Shown: piece after piece, positions 1 through 38,600 of the stretch
Layout: every line of letters starts with the position of its first letter
How positions within the stretch are numbered: position 1 is the first letter of the stretch
NCBI GenBank assembly: GCA_009602735.1
Contig: WELA01003469.1
Coordinates: 142,166 to 186,251, forward strand
Length of the DNA stretch: 44,086 nucleotides
From: Mesotaenium endlicherianum
Lineage: Eukaryota
Reading direction: 5' to 3'
Translations under genes and position numbers: made by a program
Notes under the pieces: model-generated
What the model was told of the DNA's origin: nothing
Seen by the model: only the letters and a program-made list of their open reading frames with translations
Databases searched by the model: none

Positions 1-2835
1 AACGCACGTATGGCTTGTCTTATTTGGAGAGTGAGGAGTTGAAAACACAGATTGCAGAGCTGGAGGAAAATGGTTACATTTCTCCCAGTAAATCACCGTA
101 CGGCGCACCTATCCTATTTGTTAAGAAAAAGGATGGCAGTATGCGGATGTGTGTGGATTACAGAGCCCTGAACAGAATTACAGTAAAGAACAAGTATGCT
201 TTACCCAGGATCGAGGACTTGCTTGATACCTTGTCCGGCGCTATGGTGTTCAGTAAGATAGATCTCAAGAGTGGTTATCATCAAATCAGAATTGCTGAGG
301 GGAATGAACACAAGACTGCTTTCCGCACACGTTATGGACACTATGAGTTCAACGTGATGCCATTTGGACTGACTAATGCTCCTGCTACCTTTATGGGTGC
401 TATGAATGACAATTTCAGACCTTATTTGGATAAGTTTGTGAAAGTTTTCGTGGATGATATTTTAATTTTCTCTAAAGATGAAGCTCAGCACACTGAACAC
501 TTTAAAACAGTCCTGGACACTCTGCGGAAAAATCACTTATATGCTAAAATGAGCAAGTGTGATTTCTTTAAGGAAAATATTGAATTCTTAGGACACGTTG
601 TCAGTAAGGAAGGCATCAGGGTGGATCCTAAGAAAGTCCAGACCATACGGGACTGGCCAGTACCACAGTCTGTCTCTGAAGTTAGATCCTTCCTCGGGTT
701 GGCTAACTACTATAGGAGATTTATTGAGAATTATTCCACAAAGGCCAGTAAACTGACTGACCTTACTAAGAAAGACATCGGGTATGTGTGGGGGGAAGAG
801 CAGCAGGCTGCCTTCCAGACCCTTAAAGATGCCCTTTGTTCTGCCCCAGTGCTAGCCGTGTATGACCCCAGCAAACCGGTGCAGGTGGTTACTGATGCCT
901 CTGATTTTGCCATGGGTGCTATTTTGTTGCAGCCTGCTGACAAAACCACAAAGGATGGTAAGGTACGGCAGGAGTGGCATCCTGTGTTGTATGAGTCTAT
1001 GAAATTTAATCCAGCGGAGATTAATTACTCAGTGCATGATAAAGAGCTGCTAGCTATCATTCATGTACTCAAACAGTGGAGAGCATACTTACATGGTAAA
1101 GCTTTTAAGGTGATTACAGATCATCTAGCTCTGACCCACTTTCAGAAGAAGTCCAAGCTGTCGAGGAGGGAGAACCGCTGGAGCCAGATGCTGGAGCAGT
1201 TCCAAGTCCAGATCGACTACAAACCAGGGAAGTTGAATCCTGCTGATGCACTCTCTAGAAGACCTGACTTGCAAGAAAGGAACTTTAGTCAGCATACTGT
1301 AGATAAAGTCCTGTGTGCACTCACTTCACTAAAGGTGAAAAAGTCCTTCCTTGAACAACTTAGGAAAGCCTACCTTTCTGACCCAACATTTGAGCCCAGC
1401 CCCACTACTGGTATGTGTCGTGCTACCGCACTCGGGTATAAGCTCAAGGGAGGGGTCTGGGTGACTGAAACCACTTCAGGCAGGCTGAAGCTGGTCATTC
1501 CTAATAATTTGGAAATAAGGTCTCTCTTACTGAGTCAAGCTCATGACAGTCTCCTGGGTGGACATTTGGGGCAGGCCAAAACTGTTGGCAAACTGGCAAA
1601 ACATTATCATTGGGAGGGGTTACCCCGGGAGGTCTTGAAATACGTCAAGTCCTGTGACCAGTGTCAGAGAAATAAGTCTCGGCACACACCACCCGGAGGT
1701 CTCCTGCAACCGTTGCCCATCCCAGCGGGACGCTGGGAAACTATATCCATGGGCTGGGTGGTCTCACTACCAAGAACTGCCAACGGGCATGATTCAATAC
1801 TGGTAGTTGTGGATAAACTGACAAAGATAGTCATTTTTATCCCCACAACTGTCGAAGTGACTGCACTCGAAACAGCCAGACACTTATACAACCATGTAGT
1901 ATGCCAACATGGGCTCCCTTCTAATATCATCTCAGACAGAGACTCAAAATTCACCTCTAAGTTCTGGAGAGCTTTAATGGGGTTAATGGGAGTCAAACAG
2001 CTGCTCAGCACAGCAAACCACCCTCAGACTGATGGGCAGACTGAAAGAACTAACCGAGTTCTGCAGGAGGTGCTGAGAGCATATATTAACCAAAAACAAG
2101 ATAATTGGGATGACCTGTTACCTCAAATTCAGTTTGCGATCAACAGTGCGATGCATGCGTCAACGGGCAAGACTCCTTTTGAACTAAGCCTGGGTAGAGT
2201 CCCTAAGTCTCCTGTAGATGTGCTAGGGGAATCCTTAAGGGATTGACAACCCGGTCTCCCTCCAGTTAACTCAGGAGTTTGCTGACACCCTGTCAGAAGT
2301 CCAACGAAACTTGCACACGGCCCAAGAAAACCAACAAAAATACGCTAATCAACACCGTCGTGAACTCACATTTTCCAAGGGGGATTTAGTCAAACTGCAT
2401 TCTCAGCACCTGTACCTCCCTGGTGTGGTCAAGAAAAAGCTTGGCCCTGTCTGGGTCGGTCCATATTCGGTGGTCCGTCGTGTCGGTCAGAATGCTTACA
2501 AACTGAACATGTCAGCTGAATACAAGGGGCACCCGGTCTTTAATGTCTCCTTCCTGGAACCGTACATCAAAGGTGATACACTGTTCACAGGTCGGTTCCC
2601 TGTCCAACCGGGACCGGTCCCCGCTGTCCGGGACGGCGACCCTGAGGAATATGAGGTCGATGAGATTTTAGACGCTCGCTCGGTCCGTCGATCGTCTAAA
2701 TATGTCATGAAATACCTCATTCGATGGAAGGGTTACGATGCCTCTGGGGACACTTGGGAGTTTAAGGACCACTTGACCAATGCCAAAGGGGCGTTGACAC
2801 GGTTCCACCTTCGGGCCGCTGGAGTCCCTCCATAA
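1..2835 (+). pseudogene. pol: pol polyprotein (RT, RNase H, integrase, chromodomain), disrupted copy
   Basis: RT motifs [43 protein letters not shown] (447-458). RNase H motifs TDASD, KELLAI, TDH, ADALSR. Integrase zinc finger [23 protein letters not shown], and GPY/F module WVGPY. Chromodomain EYEVDEIL..YLIRWKGY..DTWE (~2644-2810). The first frame stops at 2244-2246 and the continuation frame is open from 2239, a +1 shift. The first catalytic Asp reads Gly (SMGW, codon 1752-1754). Confidence 0.93.
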
Positions 2836-3102
2836 CTGTCATTTCAGTTGACACGGGAAGGTGACAGGCGGTCCTGTCTCCATTTAAGTTGGAGGGGAAA
2901 ATATATGACAGTTAGTGAGCGAGAGCGATAAAAACACACTCATACGTTTATGTGTAGCGCATCGCAACTACGTCAACTTTTAGCAATCATCCTGTAAGGT
3001 AAACAGCAGCGAAGCCACTATACTAAATACTAACATACTTCCTGCAATCCCTATGACAAAGGTCCATATCCTACTAACTTGTGCCCTGGTTACATGTGCA
3101 GG

Positions 3103-4779
3103 ATGGCGCCCACCACACAAAAGGAGGACAGAAAGCGCAAGGCAGAAGAAGCCAGGAGGACAATGGAGCAATACCAGAAGGAGCTGGCGGCGACGTCCCT
3201 CACCAGGAGAGAACAAGAAAGGGTCCGCAAGCAACAAGAGGCGGCAGAAGAGGCACAGAGGAAGAAGGATCAGGAAGCGGAAAACCTCAGGAAGGCTGAG
3301 GAGGAGAGACAGAAGAAACAGCAAGAAGAAGCGGCAGCGGCAGAAGAGGAGAAAAGAAAAAAGATTGAAGCGGACAGACAGAAGAGCTTGGCCACTTACA
3401 GGTATACTGTGGTGGGTGGCCAAAACTTCGATAACCTGAAGGAAGCATTGCTGGCAGCCCAGGAGATCAACAGGCTGGAACAGACAACACTGCTACAGAA
3501 GGAAGGAGCTACAGCACTGGACAGGTACATCGAGACACACACCGGCGTGGTCCTTTACGAAGATTATGCTAAGATGGTGGGCTATACAGCAGAGCAGGCC
3601 CGGTATCTCGCAGATGATTCAGAGGACAAGCCGGTCCCCATACCGGGAATAGTGGGAGATCAGAGACTCATCCGGATGGTGAGCATGCGGCCCGATAGCT
3701 TTAAGGATACGGTATTCTACCTCACACTCCTGCCAGCTTACAATGAAGTTGAGAGAAGGAGCTGGGAGTACTTGGCCAGGGAAGCAGGACAGCAGATGTT
3801 CTCTCCCCACTGGTTCCCGTGTAAACTGAGGAAGGCTGAGCACGGACCCCAGTACTACCAGCAGCCAACAGACTGGAGGTGGATGACCGTCACAAATAAG
3901 AAGCAGGAGTGTGACCGAGCCCAACCGGATGACTTCCACTATGGCCTAGACGGCTATCTCATCCTACCACCTCACATTGCCCCTTGGGACCCCAGGCTGA
4001 ATGGATGCCTGAGCAATATGAATGCAGAGACCAAGGAACATAGGAGGAGGGGAAGAGAGTACTTCTCTAAGGGAAAGCATGCCTTTGTCAAATGGGCAAA
4101 GAATGCAGGCCGGATAGATATCAGTAGGCTGAAGGCCAAGCAACCTCCAGCGCGCCCTAAGAAAGGGAGGTCGGTAGACTACTCCATGTCTACTAGGGAG
4201 CAGGACGACTTAGTGGACGAGACCCCTACTCTCTCCGAGGAGGAGGATGAGGAGGATGAGGAAGAAGAACAAGGCAGAGGAGAAGCATCAGCAGCAGGTA
4301 CTCAGGATACCCAGGGACAGGCAGTGGCACTTCCTAAAGAACCACGATCAGGTGTGTGGAATGTGATCCCCGTTATGGCGACAACTGGACCCCGCGCTCG
4401 CTCCCCCAGCCCACCTGCCCAAGCAGGGGAAGAAGCTGATCTGACTGTACTGGGCAGCAGACACAGACAGAAATCCCCAGAGGACAGGGGTGCCAGAAGA
4501 GGGACACGCGGGTGGGCCAGAGGTATGCCAGCCTCCCCCTCCGCTCAGGGGCATGTACCTCTAGCCAATGTATTTCAGCATCCTACTGGAATGCCTGTCT
4601 ATGTGGGAATCAACACCCAAGTGGTTGAAGAGCAGGCCACCATCCTCCGTTCTCCTCGAGGGCCAACTTTAGAGCAAACAGGGTTCTTTAGAAGGCCAGC
4701 TGACAGACCTAGAGGGCTGTCCAGATCTAGGTCCAGATCTCCGTCTCCTGATTCTGAAGCCCCAGGAACAACCCCTTAA
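3103..4779 (+). CDS. Extra ORF (ORF3) of the retrotransposon, ~558 aa, unknown function: N-terminal charged coiled coil, aromatic-rich central region, acidic and RS/Pro-rich tail
   Basis: 1.7-kb uninterrupted ORF between the pol stop and the PPT. In-frame ATGs at 3094 and 3103; TACTAAC (3072-3078) and TGCAG|G (AG at 3100-3101) lie directly before ATG 3103. No signal peptide or hydrophobic TM segment is visible. Confidence 0.8.
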   Translation: MAPTTQKEDRKRKAEEARRTMEQYQKELAATSLTRREQERVRKQQEAAEEAQRKKDQEAENLRKAEEERQKKQQEEAAAAEEEKRKKIEADRQKSLATYRYTVVGGQNFDNLKEALLAAQEINRLEQTTLLQKEGATALDRYIETHTGVVLYEDYAKMVGYTAEQARYLADDSEDKPVPIPGIVGDQRLIRMVSMRPDSFKDTVFYLTLLPAYNEVERRSWEYLAREAGQQMFSPHWFPCKLRKAEHGPQYYQQPTDWRWMTVTNKKQECDRAQPDDFHYGLDGYLILPPHIAPWDPRLNGCLSNMNAETKEHRRRGREYFSKGKHAFVKWAKNAGRIDISRLKAKQPPARPKKGRSVDYSMSTREQDDLVDETPTLSEEEDEEDEEEEQGRGEASAAGTQDTQGQAVALPKEPRSGVWNVIPVMATTGPRARSPSPPAQAGEEADLTVLGSRHRQKSPEDRGARRGTRGWARGMPASPSAQGHVPLANVFQHPTGMPVYVGINTQVVEEQATILRSPRGPTLEQTGFFRRPADRPRGLSRSRSRSPSPDSEAPGTTP

Positions 4780-4877
4780 GGTGACACGCTGAAGAGGCAG
4801 TCAGTAAGGGAGGCTGGTCAGGTTCAGTTCCCTTATTTAAAATTTCTGCAGTTTAATGTTGTCGAGGCGACAACAAG

Positions 4878-4892
4878 TTAAGTTGGAGGGAT
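4878..4892 (+). other. Polypurine tract (PPT) abutting the 3' LTR
   Basis: TTAAGTTGGAGGGAT immediately precedes TGTAATG, the standard PPT position. Confidence 0.8.
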
Positions 4893-5610
4893 TGTAATGA
4901 ATCAGTATATTAGTGGATATAATATTCATTTAAATATAATAGTTAATTAAGTTCAGCCTGCTGAACTTTAGTTAATAGTCAGTCTGCTGGACTTTACATA
5001 ATTATCAGTTTGCTGACTCAGTCGAAAGCAGCAGGCTGAAAGTCCATATAAGTCAGCTGCTGACACATTCTTTGACAGCAAGCTGACTTCCGTGCTCGGT
5101 AGCAGCGAACTGCCTTGATATGCATTTAAGTGCGATATGCTAGATGAATAGCCAGATGACATCCCTATGATGGATGGCTATTCGGGATGATGGGAGATGG
5201 CGGTGGATTTGGTTAACCGAGGTCCTACCAACGTGGTTAACTCCCGGGTAGGCGGTGCCATCGCACTGACCGTTGAACAGTAAACTCATTCCATGTACAT
5301 ACGCTAGGCATTGCTCTCGAGTTCGGCATTCGGAAACGAGGCCAACTCTCTTGTACAGCTTACTGAGAGAGATCTGAATCCAAGGCGAGAAGCCATTGAT
5401 ACGCACTGTCTTCTAACCTTGCTTATGTATGAGTTTACTGATTTGCATCATTGATGCTAGTTTACTCGCATTTGACTTACGAGTATTATTCTATGCTAGT
5501 GTATTGTCCTTTGCCGTTTAACTAGTTAACGGAAATACCATAAGATTACTTGCTGATGTAAAGATCTTTATTAATTGTCAATCGCCTATTTGGTAAGTCG
5601 ATTCATTTCA
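4893..5610 (+). repeat. 3' long terminal repeat (718 bp)
   Basis: Starts TGTAATGAATC and ends GATTCATTTCA (5600-5610), a 10/11 inverted match with TG...CA termini. TATA-like CATATAAG at 5045-5052. Confidence 0.85.
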
Positions 5611-6560
5611 ACCAATGACCAAAAAACTTGGTGTCAATTTGGGTCCCAAACATTGGGCTGGTGTAGCAGCTAGGATACTAAATGAATTTCATATTTGTAA
5701 AGTGCACTGTCGTCCTTACATCTAGATAAATGCTGGAACAAATCAGGACCTAAAAATAAGTTGTACTTTTCCGGATATTGTGCTGAGAAGAAATGTACTT
5801 GTGAGACCTCACACGTTTTCCTTGTAGTACCAAAAAGTGCACTAAAAAATCTCGAAAAAATCGGAAAAAGTACATTGCCAGATTGTTTACTCAAAGTAGA
5901 TTCAATATATATATGGCTCTTATGTACCACATAAGCACTGATTTTAGTATGAGCATTCAAAGATAGGCAATTGTGGTGTCCGTTTTGGTCCTATAGGCAG
6001 TGAATCTAGTGTTAAAGCTCACTTCACGCATTGAAGTGTGCTACTCTTACAAAATACATGATTTTTATTTTGAACAACGCTGGTACATGAATCAACCTAT
6101 TCTAAGAAGTATAAATGCCTGGAGACTCTTCGTAAAATGACCATCAACTTTAGAAAGAGAACAGACACACCATGGAATATAATTAACGAGATTTAATGGA
6201 CTTGAGGTGTAACGATCTGAGCTTTTTAGGCATAATTAGGATATATTTCTAATTTCCAAAAATACGTTACACTTTTGAATCGATGAAAGATTGCACTGTG
6301 ACGAATTTCTCGCCACACACTTGTGCCCACAACTTCCGGTCGATTGGCGAAACGACTAGCAATTTTAACGATAACGTATCTTTGATACTTTGCAAAAGAA
6401 TATTGTGATTAATCATAAGTTTTTTTGATTAATTACAAACGATTAATTAAGAACTACTTAACTTATTATGACTTTCATTATTTCGGATAATGTCTGTCAC
6501 AATGTTTCGACTTAACGACGATCGCTAAATCGAAAAAAACCCGAATCGGTGACTCAAGAA

Positions 6561-11275: not shown

Positions 11276-11380
11276 TTTGAGCTGCGCAACAAGTATACGA
11301 ACGTCTAATACAAACCACTCTTACGACGGCCATAGATCGTAGAACTAGTGCCCAAACAACGCATAGTAAGTCGAAGTAAC

Positions 11381-14300
11381 ATGGGACGCCTTTTGACTAT
11401 CGTATTGCTGTGTGCCATCGTAAGCTGCGCCAGTATCTTACACTCAGCGGAAGCAAGGAATGACGCAAGTTCGAAGCCTGCTAAACCTACTAAACCTGGT
11501 GCGTGCTCAGGACACGATAATGACGCCGTAGCTGTGCGCTGTCAATTTCTCTTCAATCTGTTGTGTACACCGAATTTGGGCATGCAGCCGCAAGGCTGCA
11601 AGTGCTGTGCATCCTTTGTCCCAACTGGTTTTGCCATCACTTCTTGTACAATGCTTGAGGTTTACAACCTCTCAAACTTAGCCTTAGTTTGAGAGGCTGA
11701 CATTTGATAACCTCTATCTTGCCTCTGAGAAGCGAGAAGGCAATAACTTCTATGAGAGTGCGTACGTGACCTTGTTTGTGACGGAGTCAGGCGTTTGAGG
11801 TTCACTCAGAGTTGAATGAATTAAATGCCAGATAGCGCCTTTGACGACGAACTTCCACGATCACCGCACTTCGAGAACTTTTCCAAGCTCACACCGTGTG
11901 TTCTGCTGCATCTGCAGTTTGCAGTGCGACGTCATGCCCCGCCAACTCAGTGTGCAAAGTGACTGGTAACACGATCAAGTGCTCCTGCGCTGCCGGCTTT
12001 GGCGAGAGGAGAGGGCAGTGCCTCTCAGCTGGTACACCTCGGACATCCCTTCATCGCGATGCATCCCTTCTCCTCCTCATCCTGTCTTGCTTCGGCCGTC
12101 CATACTGCCAAATTTGCACGGAAGCCTAGTTGGTGCTGTCTCTCTGGGATGGCTACACCCTTATAATTGCATAATTGTATACATAGACGCCTTATTGCTT
12201 TGGAAGCCTTGATTCAAGCAGCACTCATCTACTTTGGCGTAGTCCTTCATTTGCACCCCCTTCTGATGATTGTACCAGCAGCAGCAAGCGACAAGGAGCA
12301 AGGGCTTGCAAGTTGCACTGCTGCCGCTTGCTGACATGCGGCTGTCCATGCGTGTGCGTGCGCGCGTGCATGCAGCGTGCATTTCGGCCAACTGCCCCGC
12401 GAACTCGACGTGCGCGACTGGCAAGAACAAGAAGGTGGCGTGCCAGTGCAATGCCGGCTTCAAGAGCGTCCGGGGCCAGTGCGTCACCCTCAGTGAGTGC
12501 GCCACAGCTCACCTCCACGACTCACGACCCTATAGCTGCTTGTTTGATTGCGTTCTAGCAGCACGCTTTCTGTACCGCAAGGTACGGCGGTTTAGTCCGG
12601 GCTGGCATTGCACGCATGAGAAGACACAGATAATTGTCTCCTGTCATTTATCTCGAGTTTGTTGGGCCTAAAAACTCCTGTTCGACTGTGTGCACCTCAA
12701 AGAGCATGTGTGTGTGTGTGTGCATCTCCTGACCGTCGCTCCATGTGCGCGTGCAACTCCCCCGCCGCTCCCCCGCCCGGCTAATGTGTGAGCAGACCCC
12801 TGCGCCAGCACCACATGCCCGACCAACGCCGCGTGCTTCAACGAGGCTGTGGGCGACGACATCAAGGCCAGGTGCCGCTGCGGCGCCAACTTCGTCCTCC
12901 AGAACGGCGTGTGCGTTCCCCTCGGTGCGTGCGTGCGTGGCGTGAGCGCTATTCCTGTCCTTTAAGCTCCCTCAGCTTCTGAGCTGCTCGTCAGCGATTG
13001 GACGCGTTGCACGCTGGGCCCCCCTCGAGCACCTGGCTCATTTCTGGACGTGCACGCTCGCTCGCTTGCATGCTGCCATGAATGCCACAACTGGCACGCT
13101 CCCCCTCGCACCGTACCTGTAGCTGCTTCAGCTGTGAGATCTTCCCGGCCGGCTGTGCTGGAGCATGCCGCGTGTCCTGCGTTGATCCTACTGCTGGGAA
13201 CAAATTGCAGATTGAGGAGGCGGAGACGGTGATGTATTTGATCTTGCCTTCATTGCTGCCCCGATTACTGCTGCTGAATGTCTCTTTTGCGGCCCAACAG
13301 ATCCAGCCTCTGCCAGCTGACTAACTTGTACTTCTACCAACTGTCGTCCTCCGTGCTTGTGCCCTTCGTTCCGTGCGGTCTGCTGTGCAGACCCCTGCGC
13401 CAAGAAGGTGTGCCAGCCCAACGCGGCGTGCACCGTGACAGGTGGCAAGGCCGTGTGCTCCTGCAAGTCCGGCTTCATTGCCAAGGGCGACGTTTGCGCT
13501 GTCCTCTGTGAGTACATGACCCTCCCTCACCATCCGTGCCTCAGCCTCCTCCTCGACCTCTACCTCCCCTCGCCTCGGGAGTATTAAGCCTATCTGTATA
13601 AATGGAGGTGTTGGTGGTTGGATAGTCCGCAAGCATTTCCTCCACCACCAGTCTGCAGTTAGCTGGAGCACTGCCATTGTGAAGCACCAGCATCATCGTG
13701 CTAGGAGAATCGAGGCCGGCCTTTACATCCCCGTGCCGCAGTTCAATGGCCAATCATAACCCTCGCTACAGCTGGCTACAAGCAAGAGGACCTGTCGGTC
13801 GATTGACGCGTCCGCTAAACGGCGAGTGTGGCATGTTGGCTGGTGGTGGCGTGGTGGCGTGGATGCTTGCAGCATGTGCGGGCGTGAGGTGCCAGGCCAA
13901 CGCGGCGTGCTCAGTCGCCAGCGGCAAGGCCGTGTGCAGCTGCAAGCCCGGCTTCAAGGCCAGCAGGGGCCGCTGCATTGCCGCTGGTACGCCACCAGCC
14001 CCCCTTCCCTCCCTCCCTCCCACCCTCCCTCCCCTTTCTTCCTCTCTCCCTTCCCACTCCTTAATCACCTCTGTGCTGGGCTGTGCTACGAGCTGCTGCC
14101 GCTGCTGCTGCTGCTGCTGCCCGCAAGGCAACCATGCACACAGCGAGCTGGTGGGGCCATGTTGTGAAGGAGGGGAGAGGAGGCTGAGAGACACCTGTGA
14201 CTGCAGTGCACATGCGGGGCTCCCCGACACAAATGTATGCACGGCGGGACCCTCTTGTGAGGCAGCCAGAGGGGGCCACGACTGACTTGATTGCACTCGT

Positions 14301-15819
14301 CTATGTCGCTGTGCCGCACGCAGACCCGTGCGCGAGCGCCACCTGCCCCGTCGACTCCACGTGCTCCGCTGTCAACAACATGGCCGTGTGCACGTGCAAC
14401 GACGCCACCTTCACCATCGTGGAGGGCGTCTGCACTCCCCTCGGTCAGCCCCTTCTGCCCTCCTGCCTCTCCTGCTTCTGCTCGTACAACGCGGTTTCTT
14501 TTTGCCCACTCTGAAGATGGGTAATTGCCTCAGCGCCCCACTCCAGTATACAGGGTGGGATGCATCTTTCAGAAAAGCGCCCCTAGTAGTTTGTTTGTGA
14601 AGGTCCCTTCTCGCCTTCCTCTGTGGTTTGACAGCTGGGTGACGATGGTTTTGGAGACGGCGGGCGCAGATAACGGAGGCGACGACGTCAGCACACTCTA
14701 CCTGGCCGGTCACAATGACGCGAGAGCAGCTGTGGGCGTGGCTCCTCTGGAGTGGGACGACGCAAGTAAGTCGGCCACCCTGTGCACCTTTCACACCCCA
14801 GCGCTGCTTGACTCGATAGGCACACGTACATGCGCATGTGATCCTTTATCTACACGCGTGATTTGTCCGTGGAACTCTCATGCAGGCCCTGCAGGCTGCC
14901 ATGGCTCTCAGTAGCTGGCCTTAGAAGCAGTGCCGTTTTTCTTCATTTGTTTTTTTGTTTATTTTACCCTGAATGAGGTAACAAAGAAGCAGACAATGCG
15001 CCGCCATCTTGCAGCAGGCACATGCACGTTGCATGCATTGCGGCTGCCATAGCCTCCAGCCGCAGTTGCCTTTGCATCTCTCCAAAAAAGAAACCTTGCC
15101 CAGCTGGCTGCTCTTGGCCCCTCCTCCTCCTCGCGTCTGACTTGTGCCATGTGCGTGCGACCTCCGTGCGTGATTTCTGTTTTCCTTCTCCACCTGGCAG
15201 TTGCCGCCCAGGCCACGTCGTGGGCGGCTAGCCTGGCCAGCAGCGGGTGCGAGCTCACCAACGGCGACAACGCCGACCTCGGCCAGAACCTGGCCATGGC
15301 GGACGGCGCCATGACCCCCGAGGATGCGGTGGCGGAGTGGGTCGCGGCCGCAGCTCTCTACACTCCGGCTGCCTACCCCGGCGGCTGCAGCGAAGCTGAC
15401 GGCGCGTGCGACTACTACACTCAGGTAACTCCAGGCCCCAGGGGAGTGTGCGAGGCTGCTCACTAGGCAGAGCTCTCCACTGCGGGGTTGTTACTGTGCC
15501 GCTGCAAGCTCAGCGTTAGGATGCATCCACTCCACTACTTGGCTCCAGTGCATGCAGAGGGAGTTTCGAAGCATGCAATTCCTCCTAGTGCCACGAACCT
15601 CTCTCTTGGTTATTTGTGCCTTGCATTGCGCTTTGAAAAGGGGCTGGCCTGGGTGTTCTGTGATCTGATTGGCTAGCTTCCTTGCTGTGCGAGGTGCAGG
15701 TCATATGGGGGGCCACCACAAAGGTGGGATGCGGGTCTAGCTCTTGCGCCAGCGGTGCGACGATCCACGTGTGCGACTACAGCCCCGCAGGCAATGTGGA
15801 TGGTGAACTGCCCTTCTAG
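11381..15819 (+). CDS. Secreted protein with six EGF-like repeats and a C-terminal CAP (PR-1/SCP) domain, ~422 aa, 10 exons
   Basis: Exons 11381-11498 (signal peptide MGRLLTIVLLCAIVSCAS..), 11918-12031, 12376-12492, 12796-12924, 13391-13507, 13873-13986, 14324-14443 (each a 6-Cys C-x4-C-x5-C-xn-C-x-C-xn-C unit), 14670-14765 (YLAGHNDARAAVGVAPLEWD), 15201-15424 (GQNLA..W..YTQ), 15700-15819 (VIWGATTKVGCG..VCDYSPAGN..PF*). All introns are GT-AG and the frame is continuous (1269 nt). Confidence 0.9.
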
Positions 15820-27268: not shown

Positions 27269-30200
27269 TTACTTTGTGTAGGAGCGGCGGCGAGCGGGCG
27301 AAGCGGAGGGGCTCCTCCTGCCGGGGGACACGCTTCTCTTGCGGGGGGACACGCTCCTCTTGCGCGGGGACAGGCTCCTCTTGCGGGGGGTCAGGCTCCT
27401 CCTGCGCGGGGACAGGCTCCTCCTGCGGGGGCTGATAGCACACACCTCACCGATTCTTGTAGCTTTAGCCTGGGGGATCATCCACAAGAGACCTTGGCAA
27501 GCGGGAGTTTCCCATAACCCAGAGACAACTTCCGGATGGATTGGCAAGTCCAACGACAAGAACAGAAGCTGGAGACGAGAAGCCCACACCGCACGACACC
27601 GAGACCCAGAGCAGCTCCGCGTTCCTCACTACCTTGATTCAATATGCAACAGTCGGAGTGGACATGTGGGGCCGCCAGCACAGACACCCTGTGAAGGAGG
27701 TGGCACCAAGACCCCAGGAGCCAGGAGGAGGCAGCTCTGCACCCGGTTTGCGCACGGCAAGCACCCCTACCCCAAACATGCCAAATACGTGCGAGCGCGT
27801 GCCATCTTCCGCCCCAACATAGAGCGCGTGCCATCTTCCGCCCCAAATATGCCCCCAAGACAAGACACTTCCCGCCTACGAGGCACCAGCCAGGCAACAG
27901 GGCAACATCCTGGACTGCACACTCAATCCTCCTCTCAGCACAGCACGGCATAGTGAGCAGGTCCCAGCCTCTCAAGGTGCCCCCTCCCAGAGCATCACAC
28001 GAAGAGCACACCCTGGCATCGATGCATCAAATGAAGCCGGGAGGAGAAGGGCATGCATCCAGAACTCCACCTGCGGCTGCGGCTACGGCTGCGGCTGCTA
28101 GGACGGGGGCTGCGGCTGTGGGCGCGGCGGGGGGGTGGGCTTGGACTTCTGCCAACACGCGCACGCGGACGACCGTTCAAATCCCGACCCCTGTCGCCCC
28201 CCGGCGGACTCCCGCTGCGACTGCCGGTCCGACTTCGACTCCGACTGCGACTGTAGCTCCTCCAGCTGCGGCCAGGGCTAGGGCTGTAGCGGTGCAAGGG
28301 GGGCAGGCTTGGGGTGCGCCTGTAGCGGCGCCTGCCAGGGCTGTAGCCAGGGCTGGCGCCGCGCCTGCCCCTCAAGTAGGGGCTGCGGCTGCGGCTGACG
28401 CGCCGGTAGCTGTCGCTGTAGCGGCTTGCATACCTGTCAAAGGGGCTACGGCTGCGGCTGCGACTGCGGACGGGACTAGGGCTGTAGTAACGGCGACGGC
28501 CGCGGGGGGGGCTGCGGTAGGGGCTGCGCCTGTAGCCCCCGCCAGAGTATCTGTATGGACTGCGGCTGCGGCTACGAATGGGAGTGGGACTGGGACTTGC
28601 TGCATAGCTGACGTAGGGTGGGCCAATTGGACACCGATGACGCCATTCACAACCCCACAGAGACGCAGAGTCCGCCGGGGGGAGAACATAAATGCAGAGG
28701 TGGAAGGGTGGGTCATTGACAGCAGACACGTTGAGAGGTACCGACACACAAGGAGGTAGCCGCGACGCACACACAGGAGCCCATGAGAGGCCCGCAGCGA
28801 CGCAATTAGCAGAGACCACCCATATCACCGGACGGACAAAGTCATGGTCAACAATGGGAGACGACATGACAGGTGCCCGGTCAGGTGGTAGTGGGGCAGG
28901 ACAAGTGGACCCCGTGATAAAAGGAGCCCCCAAAGCCCAGAGATGGCACCCCAGTGGCAACACAGGGGCAAGATGAAGACAGGCACATGCGCAGGAGGAG
29001 AAGCATGTGCAGCGTGCGCGCCGGCAACAATCCCCCCCCCACAAAGCCCAAAGAAGAAAGGCAGGTATTAGCGCTGGTGGTACCACGGGGGCACAGCATC
29101 AACTCTGTCCGTCTGCTTTTCATTCCAAAACTCATATCAAAACAGTTCCGGACCATATCATGCGCAAAAGACATTTCCAGCACTTTGAGGAGGAGCTGGT
29201 CAGAACTGGTCACCATATGCGCCCCGCCCCGCACACGACCCCAAGGAAAGGGACACCATTCAGAAGCTTTGAGGCATAAAACATGCAGCTCTGAAAGACG
29301 CCGCTGCACACTGTTGCAAGGGATGGCACACCGTGCACAGGAAAATAGCAACTGGAGGTACTGGGTGAAAGGTAACGGGAGCGTGAGGAAGACATAGGGG
29401 AACAGGAAGGAGAAAGACCAGCAGAGATCACGGAAGCGGGCGAGGAAGAAGGGCTTCGCAGAAGGGGGTACTAGTGGGGGGGCGTACCGGTTGCGGCCAT
29501 AGCTAGGGCTGCGGCGATGACGGGAAGGAGGGCTCCTGCTGCGGCTGCGACTCCGTGCCCCGCCGCCCCGGCCCCCGCTTCCCATGCCACCCGGCCCAAC
29601 GCGCATCCTGCACTCGCGCGCAAAGTGACCGGGTTCACCGCACTCATAGCACTTCATGTCCTCCCCACGTCTGGGACCAGGGCCACCTGGCCCACGGGAC
29701 AGTTCAACACGCCAGCCATTCTTCCCTGTGGCGCGGCACACACACGTACAGAGACGAGGAGAAGGAGTGAGTTTGCAAGAAGTCACTCTTCTACGGCAAC
29801 TGGTGACACCATTGCCATGAGGCTCATTCCAGCGGCAAAATACATGCAGGAAGTCCAAAGACCAAGGTGGCCTGCCAAACCAAGAGAGCTGTAGTTATAG
29901 ACATGACGAGGCAAGGGGGGGAGGTTACATAGATTCCAATCACCCACGTAATATACCCTGTTCGAGCCCTGGAGCTGAGCACAAAGGAGGTTAAGTGCTC
30001 CTCCTTAGTCCTAGTTGACTGCTTGCACCAGTGCCACCGGCTCCAGAAAAACAAATCAGAGCGATTATAAAATAATCCTAAGACTGCAAGGAAGAGATAC
30101 TGATTGGTCCACTGTGTATAACACCAAAACCATGTAAGCACCCACACTGAAAGAAGAGACACTTCCTCAATACACACACAAGCAAGGCCAAGGGAATAGA

Positions 30201-32670: not shown

Positions 32671-35600
32671 CTACCACACGGCTCGGATGCCAGAACTTTC
32701 CAAAAACTGGTTGGTGTGCCACCCGGTCTGCTTGAGCCCCTCCAGCAGTGGGGGCAGCAGCTTCTCCATGCGCGCATATGCTTCCTCCAAGACATCCTCT
32801 GCCCGCGACACGGGCGCATGTGGGCCCTCGCTGTCCGCGCCTACCCTTCGAGCGCCCCCCGCGGGCTGTCTGCTGCTCCCAGGAGAGTGGCGCTGGGCAA
32901 GCCCAGGCGCGCCTTCGCCGCCCGTCCTGCTTCCCTCCGTTGCCCTCGCATGGAGAATCTCGAGGGAACAGGTGGCGAGCAGCCAGCCCCTAACTGCGTC
33001 CAGCCCCGTGGCATTGCGGTGCAGCACCAGGTCCGCCGTCCGCGCGGCGCCGCTCGAGAAGTTGACGAGAAAGCGCTCGCCCCTGAAGCGCTGGGCGAGG
33101 CGGGGCACCTCTGAGGGCGCCCCCAGCGCGCGCTTGAGGGGCGCGCCAACGCGCACGCTCCCCGACGTGCGGTCCAACGAGGACCCGAAGAACAGACGCT
33201 CGCGGTACTTCAGCTCCCCCGGATGCGCCACCTTGCCAGTCTGCACCACGTCCACACGCACGCGCACACGAACACGCACAGGGCATGCACGTACGAAAGC
33301 ACGCGCATGCACACAGTCATACAGGTGTTAAAACGGGCACACAACGCCCCAACAGGCTAACGGCTTAAAGGACTGGTCTCTCTGTCTTTGGTGCGCGTGC
33401 GTGCCACCACAGGAGAGGTTGGCGGACGGGCCAGCTAAATGGGGTGCGGTGGAGGTAGTCAGTCAACAGCTCCTCGTGTGCCTTCTCTCTCTCCCACACA
33501 CACACACGCACGCGCGCGCGAACACAAACGTGGGCGCGCGCGCGCAGAAGGAGCACAGGTGAGCCATGCTCCTGGCACGACGCTCATTATGCCGTTGCTT
33601 CGGCTGTCACTACCAAGATACGCTTCAAGGCGTGTGCCAACCAGCGGCTGGCTGCCTGTGCACGTGCGCGTGCATGTGCAAGTGCGTCTACGAGGAGAGC
33701 TACCAAGGAGTGGGCACACATGCACTGCCTGCCCGTCGCGCATCCACGAGCGCGGGCGTGGGCATGCGCAGGGGGGCACACCCCAGGCTGGCACGTTTGC
33801 CCCTGGTGCTGCTGAATGGGCTTGCAGCCACGGCACATTGAGTGCATATGGAGAGGAGGAAGTGCCAGCTGGCACCTTTTTAGCTCAGCTAGCCTCACGC
33901 AGTTGCTAGTGAAACGAACAGGCCTGCACAGGGCCTGCCCCTCTAGAAACTCCTTGGAAACTCCCGGCACACAGGCCAGCGAGGCATAGGAGAGAGGGAG
34001 GTGGGGATTGGCGAGTGAGTGCAAGGGGAAGCCTGAACGAGGAGGAGAAGAAAGAGGAGGAGGGGGAGGAGGGGGACCTGGAGGTAGTCCTGGATGAGGA
34101 GCGCGGTGCGCTCCGCGTTGAGCGTGTTGACGGGCGCTGCGCGCATCTCCTGCGCCACGCAGAACACGTGGACGGTCGACAGCGCCGCCCCCATCAGCAG
34201 CTGCTCCCCGCGCTCCACCCCCGCCCCCACCCCCATCGCCGCCACCCCCATCACCACTCCCGGATGCTGTCAGGTGCGAGGTGCGCAGCAATATCTGCCC
34301 CAGCCAGCAGGCGTGCTGTGCTGAGGCAGCACCAGCAACGTACCCGCTTGAGGGCAGGCGGGCAGTGTGCAGGTAAGCTGCCAGGGCCCAAGACAGATGT
34401 CTGTTTAGCCAGCACTCTCTCAGCTGCTCCAGCCGCAGCAGAATTTACTATGCTCCACTATTACAGACTGAATCAAAACTTGCAAGGGGTGGACTTGAAG
34501 GGGAAGGGGGGGNNNNNNNNNNNNNNNNNNNNNNNNNNNNNNNNNNNNNNNNGGGGGGGGAGGGCTCATCACATGACTAAAAGGGGGGAGGGGGTGAAGG
34601 CAGGGCCCCTCAGGGGGAGGGGCAGCAAGAGTGAGGAAGAGGAGGTGGAGGAGGAGGGTAGCGAGTAGGGGGAAGGAGTGTAGCGAGACGAGCACAGCCA
34701 GTACCTTGCCGGGGGTGGAGCGACAGAGGGAGGAGGAGGCCAGCTGGATGCCCAGGCCCATGCCGGCGATGTTGGACAGCACGGAGATGGCCTCGCCCTT
34801 GGCGTACAGGTCGCTCAGGTTGTTCTCCAGCGCAAACGACGAGTAGATGGGCAGCCTCGTGGCGCGCGCCGACACCAGCGCCGCGCCCTGCCGGGCAGGA
34901 GGCAGGCAGGCAGGCAGGCACGCACGCATGCGTCAGGAAGAGAGAGGGTGAGGGAGAGAGTGAGAGGGAGAGAGCCAAGTGAAGCAGCACTGACATCCCT
35001 CCCACTTTGGCCCACTACCCTCCGGCCTATAGAACAGCACCAGGCTACTATGCAATGTCTGATGCCCCTCCCCTCCAGTGTGCCATCATCCCCCGCCAAC
35101 AGCAACAAGGTGCTCCGTACGTTACAACAGCCACTAGCTATCCCCAAATCCCCTTTTCATTGATACACACTCGCAAGAAGAAGGCTGCGAGGGAGCGGAG
35201 AGAGCACGCCCAAGGACAGCGGTGTGGTTTAGGGTTTCACACAGCGGTTCACCCAAGGACAGAAGCGGCCGCAAAGCCTCTAGAAGCAGGGGGGAGGACG
35301 TTGAGCGTGTGCTTACCTTGGCCATCTGGGCGAGACCAGCAATGCCCAGGAACTGCTGCGGGCACAGGGGCACCAGAATCTCCAGCATGGCGCCCACGTC
35401 AAACATGCCGTCCGCTGCCAGGTCACCACCAACGCTCACACACACAGAGGGAGGGAGAGAGAAAGAGAGGACAGCGGCCCAGATCAGATACGTCCACCGT
35501 ACACATAGTCAGCTAGCACCATCTCCCCCCCCCCCGGAGTTCCGACGGCCCCCCTAAAGAGGATACTGCTTTGATAAAGTCGCCACCATGGCTTCTGTCA

Positions 35601-38600
35601 GGAAACCACCGGCTGTCCGGACCTGCCGGTGCCATCTCAGAGACCCAAAGGTGCACACGGAGACGGCCGCACATGGGCAGGGCAGCCCAGAGGAGAGCAG
35701 GCACATTGTCCCCCCACTGTGGAGAGCCTCCAGGCTTGCGTGAGAGCGAGGGGCTAGTGCTACCAGCAGCCTCGTCCTCCCTGAGCTCAGCCTTTCCTGG
35801 ATCAGGGCTGGCCTGGCCCAGGGTCTTTGGCCTTCCAGTGACCATGGCCGCGGCGGGGCCAGAAGCCACTGAGTGACTCCTCTGGCCGATGCTCTCGCTG
35901 GCGCCCCCACGATCTGCCCTGCCCCCTCAGGCGGGGGCACGCCCTCGACACGACCGGGCAAATAGGCTAAAAGAGTGGCACCGTATGATAGGGAGGCGAG
36001 GGGTAGGGAATGGGGGTGGGGGTNNNNNNNNNNNNNNNGGGTGGGGGGAGCGGGGAGGAAGAAGGCGGGGGGGGAGGGAGCGCACCGAGCACGCGCCACT
36101 GCTTGGGCTGCGCGTCCATGCGGGCGCCCAGGGAGCTGCACATGAACTTGCCCACGTGGCCCAGCCCGTCCTTGAGCACCTGTCGCCACTCCCCAGCACA
36201 CACGCACACACCGCGACACCGACGTTGAGGAGGGCGCGCTGGGCTGCTGTCGGTGCGCTGCTGGGCCACGTCCTCACACCAGCAATGCTGCTCCTGTATA
36301 CTACGTCTTGCCATTAGGTAGATACTGTAGCAGACGACAGCCCACGCACCAGGTCCACAAAGTCGGGGAGAAGGAGAGGGAGCGGGAGAGAGAGGGAGAG
36401 GGGACGGGGAGGCGGGGGAGGAAGAGCATACCCAGCTTGCAATGGTGGCGTGCGCTGAAGTCGAAGGCAGCCCCGCGGTGACCAGCAGGGACTGCATGCG
36501 CACACGCTCACGCGATGTCAGCATATGTATGTGAGCACCCCTGTCTGCCCCGACGGTACACAAGCGGCAGGCACTGGCAAGAGGACATCTCTCCTTCAGA
36601 GAAGGAGGGGNNNNNNNNNNNNNNNNNNNNNNNNNNNNNNNNNNNNNNNNNNNNNNNNNNNNNNNNNNNNNNNNNNNNNNNNNNNNNNNNNNNNNNNNNN
36701 NNNNNNNNNNNNNNNNNNNNNNNNGGGGGGGGACCTACTTGCGTGGAGAGCACCCCAAGCACGGCGGAGGCGCAGTGCTGCACGGCCCTGTATGCGGAGT
36801 ACGTCACATATCCGTCCGCCACGCTGCCCCGCCCAAGCCCCGCCACCCCACCCCGTCACGAACCTCGTCAGTCCCTGCTGCCCAGCACCGGATCCGGTGT
36901 TGTGAGCAGCTACTGCTGCCGCTGCTGCCCCTGCTGCTGCTGCTGCACCGGTTGCAACGGATGATGCACCAGTGCTGGTGACGAAGAGGGGGGGTGCAGA
37001 ATACTGGGGGCCAAGGGCGTGCATGCGTGCGTGCGTGCGTGCGTGCGTGCGTGGCTGGCATAACGTGAGGGCTAGGGCTGCGCGGGGCAAGCCGTACGTG
37101 CACGAGGGTGTAAGTCGTCTCTCCCACAGCCACACTGCCACTGCCACTGCCACTGCGGAGTGACGTGGCGAGCCGCAACTCCGGACCATCGTCCGTGCAG
37201 CAAATGTTCCCTCCCTCCTCCTCCCTGCCCCCCCTGATCCTCGCTGGCACCCCCGCACCCGCCCTCCAGCTTTCCTCCCTTCTGCAGGCCTTTTGTCACT
37301 GCAACTCCGCAGCTGAAAGCTGAGTGTGTGAGTGCATGCGTGCGCGGGTGGCGGTCGTGAGAGAAAGGGCCGAGCCAGTGTGAAGGTCAGAACCACAGAA
37401 AGAACTGCAGGCCGCCTCTCGTACATGGCATGCAAGGGGTGTGTGTGACTGTGTGTAACTGTGTGCGTGCGCGCACGCGAGTGTGCGTGGGGGAGAGGGG
37501 GGGGGGGAAGGGGGGAGGCATGTGGGTGGGTGCGCGCGCGTGTGTTTGTGTGAGCCTCTTGTGCACTCCCTCCCTCGCCTCACCCCGGGCTTCACGGCTG
37601 CTGCACATTTTGCAGCTGTTGTAGCAGAGCCCGAACGCGGGCAGTGGAAGAGCACACTTGTAAGGACCTCTGATCTGGCTGGGCAGTCCCCTCCCTCTCA
37701 CCTGTGCCCCTGCCCCTGTTAGTGCAGTAACTATGACAAACTGCGCGTGCTGCAATGCATCAGCCTGCAGCGAGTAAGCTCCCAGCGTGCGCCAACCAGC
37801 AAAGTAAAAAAGTTGTTCTTCCTAGGCCCGTCCGGGGGGGGGGGNCCTCCCCCCCCACCATTTCACGCGGGTCACAGACCCGCCCGCCCGCCCACCCGCA
37901 CGCACGCAAATCTCACGTGGCCTTTAGCTCGCGAACGTGCACGTGCAAATCTGTATATCGGACATGGTTTTTTTTTTCTAGCGTGCAAGGCTGGCCCACC
38001 CAAGCAACTAGGGGAGCTGGCCCTTGTTCTCCCTTTGCACTCTCTCACACACCACGCTCGGGTTCCTTCACTCCAGCCTCATCCTCTTGATCCAGGTCTA
38101 GCCACGGACTTCGCAAGTGACGCATACCCGACGACCCGGCAACTGCCATACGTCTCCTGTCCTTGTTCTCGTCCTGTCTTCACTTTGCCGTGGGAGCTGA
38201 TTCTGAGAATCGTCAAATCCAAGGAGCGGTGTTCCCACTCTTGCCACATGAGCCCCTCTTTGCTTTGCTTGTTCTCCGCAGAGAATACAGTGAAAACAAA
38301 CTATTGAAAACATATACACACATATATATGTGTGGTTGGAAAAAGAGAGGAGAGGGAGTGGCAAGAAAAGCAGGGTCCCCACAAGCTTTTTCAGCATTTC
38401 CAGCAAGCCACGCGCAAACAGCAGAGATTTTGCATGGTAGGTGCTGACAACCGCGAGGGACAGCTCGATCCACCAGCTGGGTATCTTCTCAGCACACCGC
38501 AGGCCTCTCCGTACTTCTGATGGGTGGCTAGCTGCTCAAAGGCTACCCAATGACCACGACCTGCTACTGGTCCGTGTCCGGGTCAGGGGCCTCTGTAAGA

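Follow-up and report, generated by a model that had tools for sequence, protein, structure and literature searches.

A candidate accessory gene between pol and the 3′ LTR of an algal chromovirus: an orphan open reading frame with splice-like signals

The window, by which is meant the whole 44,086-nucleotide stretch of Mesotaenium endlicherianum DNA analysed here, opens within a retrotransposon that, by its domain content, is a Ty3 chromovirus. A third open reading frame (ORF3) behind its pol is open well beyond chance expectation. ORF3 quite probably belongs to the element, and selection within that lineage would have maintained its frame, as the splice signals ahead of it and a signature of long residence favour an element gene. 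The reading tentatively preferred, by analogy with known systems, is that of a resident accessory gene, spliced and probably served by an internal promoter, which would encode a nuclear activator or anti-silencer. As the searches gave no homologue, sibling copy or confident structure, the proposed function rests on composition and analogy. The features of the region are listed in Table 1.

Table 1. Features at the 3′ end of the chromovirus, in positions of the window
Feature	Position	Strand	Basis
pol, 5′-truncated at the window edge: RT, RNase H, integrase zinc finger and core	3..2246	+	ORFs, Pfam
Integrase C-terminus, in another frame: SH3 (GPY/F) and chromodomain	2239..2835	+	Translation, Pfam
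CpG-retaining, AG-poor, GTC/CGGTY-rich island over integrase tail and spacer; candidate internal promoter or cis target	2240..2990	+	
First (internal) PPT copy; candidate central PPT	2884..2900	+	Repeat search
Two candidate 5′ splice donors (intron starts 2994 and 2999)	2994..3004	+	Resemble host donors
Branch point TACTAAC (3028–3034) and first AG (3060–3061); candidate alternative acceptor	3028..3061	+	
Branch point TACTAAC (3072–3078) and TGCAG acceptor (3097–3101)	3072..3101	+	One base ahead of ORF3 ATG
ORF3, 558 aa, orphan	3103..4779	+	Translation, shuffles, homology searches
ORF3 residues 1–90: charged, helix-like E/K/R/Q/A segment with basic clusters	3103..3372	+	Composition
ORF3 residues 91–348: complex-sequence core	3373..4146	+	Composition, searches, AlphaFold2
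ORF3 residues 349–558: a basic cluster, an acidic run and a low-complexity, SP-rich tail that closes with an RS stretch	4147..4779	+	
3′ hairpin and 3′ PPT (13-mer 4878–4890)	4841..4892	+	Fold z = −5.2
3′ LTR, with donor-like GGTAAGT at 5592–5598	4893..5610	+	

The region of interest (2836–4892) extends from the pol stop codon (2833–2835) to the TG that starts the LTR at 4893. An earlier note had placed a sense ORF of about 558 codons here, between pol and the PPT, and this is confirmed: it runs from the ATG at 3103 to the stop at 4779, with the chromodomain-integrase upstream and the PPT and 3′ LTR downstream. An in-frame ATG at 3094 would give 561 aa, and the frame is free of stops over 581 codons (3034–4779). 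None of 2000 shuffles of 60-nt blocks reached 581 codons, the longest frame being 287, and the remaining two sense frames across the region contain numerous stops. The CpG observed/expected ratio of ORF3 (0.40) resembles that of pol (0.37) and not that of host coding sequence in the same window (0.84, from the one host gene measured), which was counted for residence in the element. Codon usage, scored for pol against one host gene, came to −0.004 per codon for the ORF3 core and +0.023 overall, and the core is not separated.

The charged N-terminus, basic clusters, acidic run and RS tail described previously are all present. Residues 1–90 are 53% charged, with a further 29% Q and A, and motifs occur at residues 10 (RKRK), 84 (KRKK), 353 (KKGR) and 541 (RSRSRS). 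The acidic run lies in the C-terminal part, and the RS stretch consists of three dipeptides only. The core had also been called rich in W, Y and P; residues 91–345 (255 in all) include 15 Tyr, 6 Trp and 14 Pro, and Pro is not notably enriched. NES-like patterns at residues 200 and 278 are at chance level. The basic clusters are in keeping with a nuclear role, and the RS/SP tail would suit RNA processing equally well. Given the other steps of the scheme, the chances are about even that the protein enters the nucleus, self-associates by its charged helix and acts on CpG-rich cis regions of the element through its core and acidic/SP tail.

The large homology searches were queried with the core (residues ~85–348), the low-complexity N- and C-terminal parts being left out. 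No match to the core was found in 1.84 billion representative proteins or among 3862 word-sharing candidates (lengths 306–977 only), and ORF3 had none in a collection that includes the predicted proteins of this host. The best E-values were 1 for the core against the PDB, 0.006 for the whole ORF against Pfam (low-complexity), 0.001 for five fragments against families (Obc1_C, under the cut-off), 0.04 against PHROGs and 0.05 against NCBIfam. The top ESM Atlas score was 0.84, where scores below 0.9 were taken as noise-level, and of the pattern matches, 70 metagenomic and 3 viral, none was confirmed. AlphaFold2 run without an alignment returned pLDDT values of 33.4 and 33.9, which do not bear out the globular nature suggested for the core. 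Neither ORF3 nor its 3′ DNA was matched in any of 101 pol-related loci. The accessory protein family that had been proposed is thus not borne out, with no second member in the proteins or the 101 related loci searched.

It is very improbable, and largely refuted, that ORF3 is gag from a TR-GAG-like element, nested or in tandem, or the captured coat protein of a filamentous virus. In short circular contigs gag does come after pol–PPT–LTR, and the ESM Atlas returned flexivirus and potyvirus coat clusters at 0.79–0.80. However, Pfam, fragment and profile searches found no capsid domain (Retrotrans_gag or Ty3_capsid) or zinc knuckle in ORF3, no LTR-like repeat lies beyond the first PPT, and against a profile built from the upstream ORFs of relatives ORF3 does no better than shuffled sequence, 388 of 500 shuffles scoring as high. 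Downstream ORFs of relatives are recognizable by such means. Among the 39 loci with a chromodomain match, 12 have pol followed within 3 kb by a sense ORF of 180 aa or more; 11 were scanned, L101 being excluded because its call was an upstream element. Six of these match gag in Pfam, L043 can be classed as gag from its position and zinc knuckle, and three of 182–188 aa belong to no family. The coat-protein lead, drawn from the Atlas rows and a motif resemblance, was rejected, as a 70-sequence coat-protein profile gave no domain and the flexivirus/potyvirus coat core had no profile match in ORF3. A match to a host gene or a nested gag, which the earlier note had named as refuting its reading, was not found in these searches.

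ORF3 would likely be translated from a separate spliced RNA by way of the acceptor at 3101, which would make its ATG the first in the exon and skip an out-of-frame ATG at 3053. The TGCAG acceptor matches host acceptors, and the donor at 2999 is a closer match to host donors than that at 2994. No AG intervenes between either TACTAAC and its acceptor, and two TACTAAC..AG/G units within the 270-nt spacer were seen in 1 of 5000 dinucleotide shuffles. These motifs were spotted first and tested afterwards. They are the only plus-strand copies of TACTAAC in the 44 kb, a window-wide count at chance level, and the looser pattern CTRAY..YAG is not enriched (P 0.51). The RNA would start either inside the element, at a promoter in the integrase tail where CpG is retained, with an intron of 103–108 nt, or at the 5′ LTR, with a long intron of the env type; the balance is tipped slightly towards the internal promoter.

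The same acceptor could be joined to donor 2994. This 108-nt intron preserves the frame from an ATG at 2950, adding 15 residues to give a 573-aa form that could be membrane-targeted or secreted, and ORF3 would then be envelope-like or particle-associated. The added residues include a short hydrophobic stretch (best 8-residue hydropathy 3.2), and the env position and acceptor recall the env-like genes of Athila and Bagy2. Against this, the frame would fit by chance in one case in three, the hydrophobic stretch is short and donor 2999 is nearer to those of the host. The maximal 19-residue hydropathy of ORF3 is 0.73, too low for a TM helix; no signal peptide is seen in the 558-aa form, N-glycosylation sequons are absent and there are three Cys. 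An envelope-like product is improbable, and the earlier description stands, that of a third ORF which occupies the env position without being an envelope gene and has neither signal peptide nor TM helix.

The candidate internal promoter coincides with an unusual tract of the integrase gene. The CpG ratio of the integrase tail is 2.2-fold that of the rest of pol, a value equalled by none of 26 relatives, and the scan statistic for the island was reached in 0 of 300 permutations. Arg is encoded by AGR in 0 of 13 cases and Val by GTC in 17 of 19 (Fisher p ~1e−5 against pol), while the lowest p for synonymous skew in the 26 relatives is 0.029. CGGTY occurs nine times in 651 nt on a single strand; with the codon usage of the tail itself preserved, the excess is weak (P 0.02–0.04), the motif sits in coding DNA rather than in tandem repeats, and the LTR is not enriched. 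The island contains a 12-bp palindrome (2610–2621), and no clear TATA box was established for the candidate promoter. The island starts near the frameshift and could be the trace of a recombinant join, but its best-fit edges vary by motif (1411, 2251 and 2451).

The same resident spliced gene might instead encode an RNA factor resembling Rev or Rec, which would balance spliced and unspliced element RNA or export genomic RNA. The RS/SP tail and basic clusters would suit such a factor, the strong splice signals would make protection of unspliced RNA necessary, and the depletion of AG in the integrase tail (z −5.6) could avert cryptic acceptors. The strong RNA structure at 4801–5040 (z −5.7 and −5.0) could serve as a response element. 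This reading is considered unlikely. Pfam and fragment searches found no RRM or other RNA-binding family in ORF3, the RS stretch is brief, the island is unstructured as RNA at the 120-nt scale (z −0.3 to −2.0), Rfam has no match in 2200–6500, and the hairpin ahead of the PPT is also common in relatives without an extra ORF. The comparisons with VANC and Rev made in the earlier note are analogies, for which a sequence or structure link was not found.

Two 13-nt PPT cores flank ORF3. The internal copy is identical to the 3′ PPT over these 13 nt and lies ~50 nt beyond the pol stop with no LTR behind it; a relic LTR at this point was rejected, as no LTR-like repeat is found there. In none of 100 shuffles did the 13-mer occur twice. 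The flanks of the two copies do not align (P 0.28 and 0.40), which fits selective retention of the 13-mer. A second copy was found in 0 of 17 relatives; three of the PPT calls in these (L027, L043 and L059) are probably false, and in the other 14 the distance between pol stop and PPT is −5 to 912 nt, compared with 2057 in this element. A hairpin drawn on paper at 2863–2878, ahead of the first PPT, is not significant (z −0.8). In the preferred scheme plus-strand synthesis would be primed centrally from the upstream copy, and the downstream copy, embedded in its hairpin, would set the LTR edge.

The repeated 13-mer also admits a different history, in which ORF3 is of foreign origin and brought along a promoter and 5′ intron of its own. 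It would have been captured in one copy or a small sub-lineage by read-through transduction, or by insertion with a 13-bp duplication at the PPT, and would be useless to the element. Deleting one 13-mer and the segment between leaves an ordinary chromovirus 3′ end, ORF3 is present in 0 of the 101 related loci, and transduction into one or few copies is known (PMC7264820). Nor does the open frame argue otherwise. The earlier note had set an intact ORF3 against a broken pol, and both parts are correct: pol changes frame near 2225–2246, and the first integrase catalytic Asp, kept in 117 of 118 relatives, is Gly (nt 1752). The contrast carries no statistical weight, however, since one to two lesions in 945 pol codons give a probability of 0.55–0.31 of none in 558 codons, and in a copy decayed to this level chance would account for the intact ORF. 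Capture as a passenger is nevertheless unlikely. Protein searches found no donor gene, and the segment ends show no terminal inverted repeat or poly(A). The 3′ end of the segment pairs with the PPT and LTR edge and bears the hairpin typical of relatives, the CpG depletion of ORF3 equals that of pol, and the skewed integrase codons upstream are not explained by insertion alone.

The carrier itself has the order RT–RNase H–integrase, with Pfam matches to these and to SH3 (GPY/F; PF24626, E 2.5e−16) and Chromo (PF00385, E 2.2e−9) at the integrase C-terminus. Its translated chromodomain carries the Y/W/Y aromatic-cage residues (motif after the part of PMC6317226 used here), and an aromatic-cage chromodomain in a non-seed-plant host, as found here, is in that part a feature of the Tcn1 or Chlamyvir clade; a host gene of the window is 99% identical to a Mesotaenium protein. 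In an RT–RNase H tree of 201 sequences, which holds no reference Tcn1 or Chlamyvir, the element is sister to P0008/P0009; the next clade contains three Closterium proteins (support 0.94), and four angiosperm proteins fall outside. Chlamyvir and Tcn1 are the groups that the element most resembles. The start of the 3′ LTR is secure, its first 8 nt being identical to those of relatives L035 and L093, while the end is uncertain (5610 favoured, 5720 and 6437 as alternatives).

Accessory genes of several known elements share parts of this arrangement. Gene23 of maize Grande (Tat/Retand) encodes a nuclear protein expressed from its own promoter (PMC7264820) and lies in a long pol-to-LTR region, but it is antisense and in a non-chromovirus, a sequence link to ORF3 was not found, and for ORF3 the nuclear role and internal promoter are candidates only. 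The Athila/Bagy2 env-like ORFs and bdelloid ORF3s occupy the env position and are expressed from spliced subgenomic RNA, for which ORF3 has candidate signals; the former encode proteins with TM helices and the latter enzymes, and ORF3 shows neither. Sunflower Tekay 5′ aORFs are chromovirus accessory genes whose proteins, with predicted NLS, long helices and disorder, are proposed silencing modulators (PMC11728184), but they lie upstream of gag in an angiosperm clade and no similarity to ORF3 was detected. In the excerpt of PMC5735166 used, VANC of VANDAL DNA transposons binds dense same-orientation motifs, for which CGGTY would be the counterpart, with binding putative; there the motifs measure 9 nt and sit in tandem repeats outside coding sequence, in elements of the MULE type, and Pfam and large protein searches found no homology of ORF3 to VANC domains. 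Foamy virus has an internal promoter, spliced accessory genes (tas/bel) that follow its structural genes on the 3′ side, and an additional PPT in a central position, as the consulted portion of PMC7828637 describes, a likeness that is architectural only. It belongs to the animal Retroviridae and has a true env, and the internal promoter here is a candidate. Foamy virus Tas binds its promoters.

These likenesses can be joined in a bolder but doubtful proposal, namely an independently evolved complex chromovirus of foamy-virus-like design, with an island promoter set in synonymous sites of the integrase tail, a central PPT and a spliced nuclear anti-silencer of new fold, VANC-like in action, that binds the CGGTC-rich island and LTR. 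Such a switch would keep island and LTR unmethylated and active, in a host from the algal sister group of land plants. ORF3 would then be a sequence-specific counter-silencing factor in a retrotransposon, probably with a new fold; no demonstrated case was found in the literature searched. As a passenger, it would represent a commonplace capture that left an unusually clear trace. Plant LTR retrotransposons contain thousands of extra ORFs to which no function has been assigned. ORF3 comes with cis features that lend themselves to testing, namely a defined acceptor, a second PPT and a candidate internal promoter in which a motif is repeated. What is new here is the PPT flanking ORF3 twice, the TACTAAC/acceptor pairs and the skewed integrase tail.

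The third ORF is real, but the rarity of 3′ extra ORFs in chromoviruses had been overstated. In the available part of the survey by Neumann et al. (2019, PMC6317226), eORFs are counted in 3372 Ty3 elements and fall into 314 groups with no relation to one another; those of the sense 3′ type (eORF-3′F) occur in 18% of 782 Tekay chromoviruses, with none tabulated for Chlamyvir (44) or Tcn1 (1500). ORF3 resembles that class, as far as the same part and that of PMC7264820 describe it, in having at least 250 codons, sense orientation, a place between pol and the 3′ LTR, and neither conserved domain nor tandem repeat. It differs in its zygnematophyte host, and in the flanking PPT pair and skewed integrase tail, which are not seen there. 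The remaining scanned relative, L087, carries a sense ORF of 390 aa that overlaps the pol end; it looks like a genuine 3′ ORF and bears no relation to ORF3.

ORF3, the sense frame in the env position between pol and the 3′ LTR, is a real orphan third gene within the known and common class of sense 3′ extra ORFs. None of 2000 block shuffles reaches an open frame of this length (the longest spans 287 codons), which shows past coding. The composition described in the earlier note is largely borne out: the N-terminal 90 residues are charged, the core is of complex sequence, the tail is of SP/RS type, and the protein also has basic clusters and an acidic run but lacks any hydrophobic segment. Two shadow ORFs over the purine-rich start of ORF3 are probably by-products of composition.

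The core of ORF3 has no match in 5.8 billion clusters (word search), 1.84 billion representatives (full HMMER), PDB sequences, Pfam, PHROGs, NCBIfam, the ESM Atlas (top score 0.84), viral and metagenome contigs, or 101 pol-related loci. Two alignment-free AlphaFold models were uninformative. As the word-searched collection includes the Mesen1 proteins of the host, an annotated host gene is an unlikely parent. It is highly improbable that ORF3 is a gag or coat protein, with gag and filamentous-virus coat protein both rejected by purpose-built profiles and shuffles; for gag, the gags of relatives (pol-related loci) served as controls. No match to a host gene or to gag was found by the sequence searches or by the gag profile and shuffles.

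It had been stressed that ORF3 is intact and pol broken. Both statements are true, but they are uninformative on selection after insertion, because a lesion-free ORF of 558 codons has a 31-55% chance of occurring, given one or two lesions per 945 pol codons. The observed/expected CpG ratio is 0.40 in ORF3, 0.37 in pol and 0.84 in one host gene (0.91 in its exons 2-9). This depletion, common to ORF3 and pol and unlike the one host gene measured, favours, without proving, a long residence of ORF3 in the element. By codon likelihood, ORF3 as a whole leans only slightly towards pol, and its core leans neither way. That ORF3 is a captured passenger is considered unlikely.

The supposed rarity of such genes in chromoviruses is overstated, as sense 3′ extra ORFs are carried by 18% of 782 Tekay elements (PMC6317226, supplement 5). 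None is tabulated there among 44 Chlamyvir and 1500 Tcn1 elements, or for Reina, Galadriel and CRM; the per-element list may include rare exceptions. The figure legend of Novikova 2010 marks an “add. ORF” among fungal Gypsy elements (PMC2864245), and env-carrying elements with a chromodomain are described in animals (PMC13524379). One relative, L087 (40% pol identity), is a chromodomain Ty3 element with a 390-aa sense 3′ ORF (L087:2852-4024, +) that overlaps the pol end and is unrelated to ORF3; its product contains a WCCH motif and has a coiled coil at the C-terminus. No earlier report of a sense 3′ extra ORF in this lineage and host, or description of the cis architecture around ORF3 (PPTs, splice signals, skewed tail), was found in the literature searched. 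Another relative, L043, has an unusually long 639-aa gag (L043:2452-4371, +), of which residues 1-541 lack a Pfam match.

The window starts within the RT of this Ty3 element. Pol is damaged: its reading frame shifts near 2225-2246, and Gly replaces the first of the catalytic Asp residues of integrase, which 117 of 118 relatives keep. Pol identity to relatives is at most about 53-55% among the matches listed (at least 120). A tree built from 201 RT-RNase H sequences, none of them a named Tcn1 or Chlamyvir reference, places pol as sister to two proteins and beside three Closterium proteins, with four angiosperm ones lying apart. This position and the aromatic-cage chromodomain point to a Tcn1/Chlamyvir-like element, from the chromoviruses of non-seed plants. 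The first 8 nt of the LTR are identical in two relatives. Its end may lie at 5610, 5720 or 6437; at 5610, an inverted match (10/12) coincides with a composition shift.

Coordinates of features in the window
Feature	Position	Strand	Remarks
RT, RNase H, integrase zinc finger and core	frame 3-2246	+	Pfam
SH3 and chromodomain	frame 2239-2835	+	Pfam
Perfect 12-bp palindrome	2610-2621		inside the island (CpG-retaining integrase tail and spacer); possible dimeric factor site
Shadow ORF	2980-3492	-	170 aa, antisense
Shadow ORF	3053-3439	+	128 aa, other frame
ORF3	ATG 3103 to 4779	+	558 aa; 267-nt spacer after pol
Strong RNA structure	4801-5040		across 3′ UTR, PPT and U3 start (z -5.7 and -5.0); U3 has short inverted and direct repeats of a GCTGA-containing unit
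PPT then TG-starting LTR	4878-4893	+	
Host gene	11336-14400	+	signal-peptide-like start; repeated Cys-rich EGF-like exons
Tandem repeat	27311-27436		five 21-nt copies
Host SR-type splicing factor gene	27995-29894	-	RSZ-like, with a long RS region and a zinc knuckle
RUS-family (UVB_sens_prot) host gene	32674-40196	-	99% identical to M. endlicherianum (JGI Mesen1) protein

The 13-nt core of the PPT, the DNA-priming signal of the element, occurs at 2884 and 4878, flanking ORF3. No such repeat arises in 100 shuffles, and the other 13-mers that recur within 1-5720 belong to purine-rich codon repeats of ORF3. The first copy lies about 50 nt past pol, the usual chromovirus PPT site, with no LTR behind it. 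The second is inside a stable hairpin (z -5.2) and the first is not. No second copy was found in 17 relatives with a PPT call (three calls doubtful). The flanks of the two copies fail to align, and this retention of the exact core without flanks suggests that the upstream PPT may prime the plus strand centrally, as described for Ty1, EVADE and foamy virus (PMC7197481, PMC7828637). A rival to central priming is a 13-bp duplication left by a capture event.

The integrase tail carries a second code over its protein. Its CpG ratio is 0.81 in 2239-2835 against 0.37 in pol, a tail-to-pol quotient that none of 26 relatives reaches (median 1.02), and the scan statistic is reached in 0 of 300 permutations. 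Arg is encoded as AGR in 0 of 13 cases (27 of 40 in pol), Ser as AGY in 0 of 11 and Val as GTC in 17 of 19. This codon skew has a p of about 1e-5, the lowest among relatives being 0.029. The segment is also poor in AG (z -5.6) and rich in GTC (z +7.2). CGGTY occurs nine times in 651 nt and never in the preceding 2239 nt (+ strand), though this excess weakens to P 0.02 when the codon usage of the segment itself is preserved. The island, immediately 5′ of ORF3, is read here as a candidate unmethylated internal promoter or protein-binding site. Alternatively, AG depletion could reflect avoidance of cryptic acceptors, or the skew a recombinant join near the frameshift.

The best branch site for U2 splicing is TACTAAC. 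On the + strand of the 44 kb it occurs only at 3028 and 3072; downstream of each lies a stretch devoid of AG that ends in AG|G, at 3061 and 3101 respectively. Two such units in one spacer arise in 1 of 5000 shuffles, a test made after the motif had been noticed; a looser plant branch-point pattern is not enriched in the spacer. The acceptor at 3101 (TGCAG) resembles host acceptors, leaves one base ahead of the ATG, and bypasses an out-of-frame ATG at 3053 that starts a 128-codon frame. Local donor candidates at 2994 and 2999 would give introns of 108 or 103 nt. The alternative is a 5′ LTR donor, seen as GGTAAGT at 5592 in the 3′ copy, but 16 ATGs lie in the preceding 520 nt. Use of donor 2994 would add 15 in-frame residues including a short hydrophobic stretch; an env-like form made through alternative splicing is very unlikely.

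The layout of ORF3, PPTs, motifs and tail can be read directly from the DNA. Foamy virus Tas binds its promoters. The leading reading, tentative and short of probable, is that ORF3 is a resident accessory gene whose RNA would start at an internal promoter and be spliced at 3101, and whose product would enter the nucleus and activate or de-silence its own element. The models for this manner of action are Grande gene23 (PMC7264820), foamy virus tas (PMC7828637) and VANC (PMC5735166). The earlier note had proposed a VANC- or Rev-like nuclear factor; for a protein with basic clusters and an RS tail, a Rev-like RNA factor is the doubtful member of that pair.

The 99% identity of the RUS-family gene marks the host as M. 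endlicherianum, a zygnematophyte alga, or a very close relative. In the Mesen1 model of this protein, residues 1-268 derive from a single AT-richer exon without a Pfam match. Two of the mapped segments of the gene lie only 28 nt apart, possibly a gene-model oddity.
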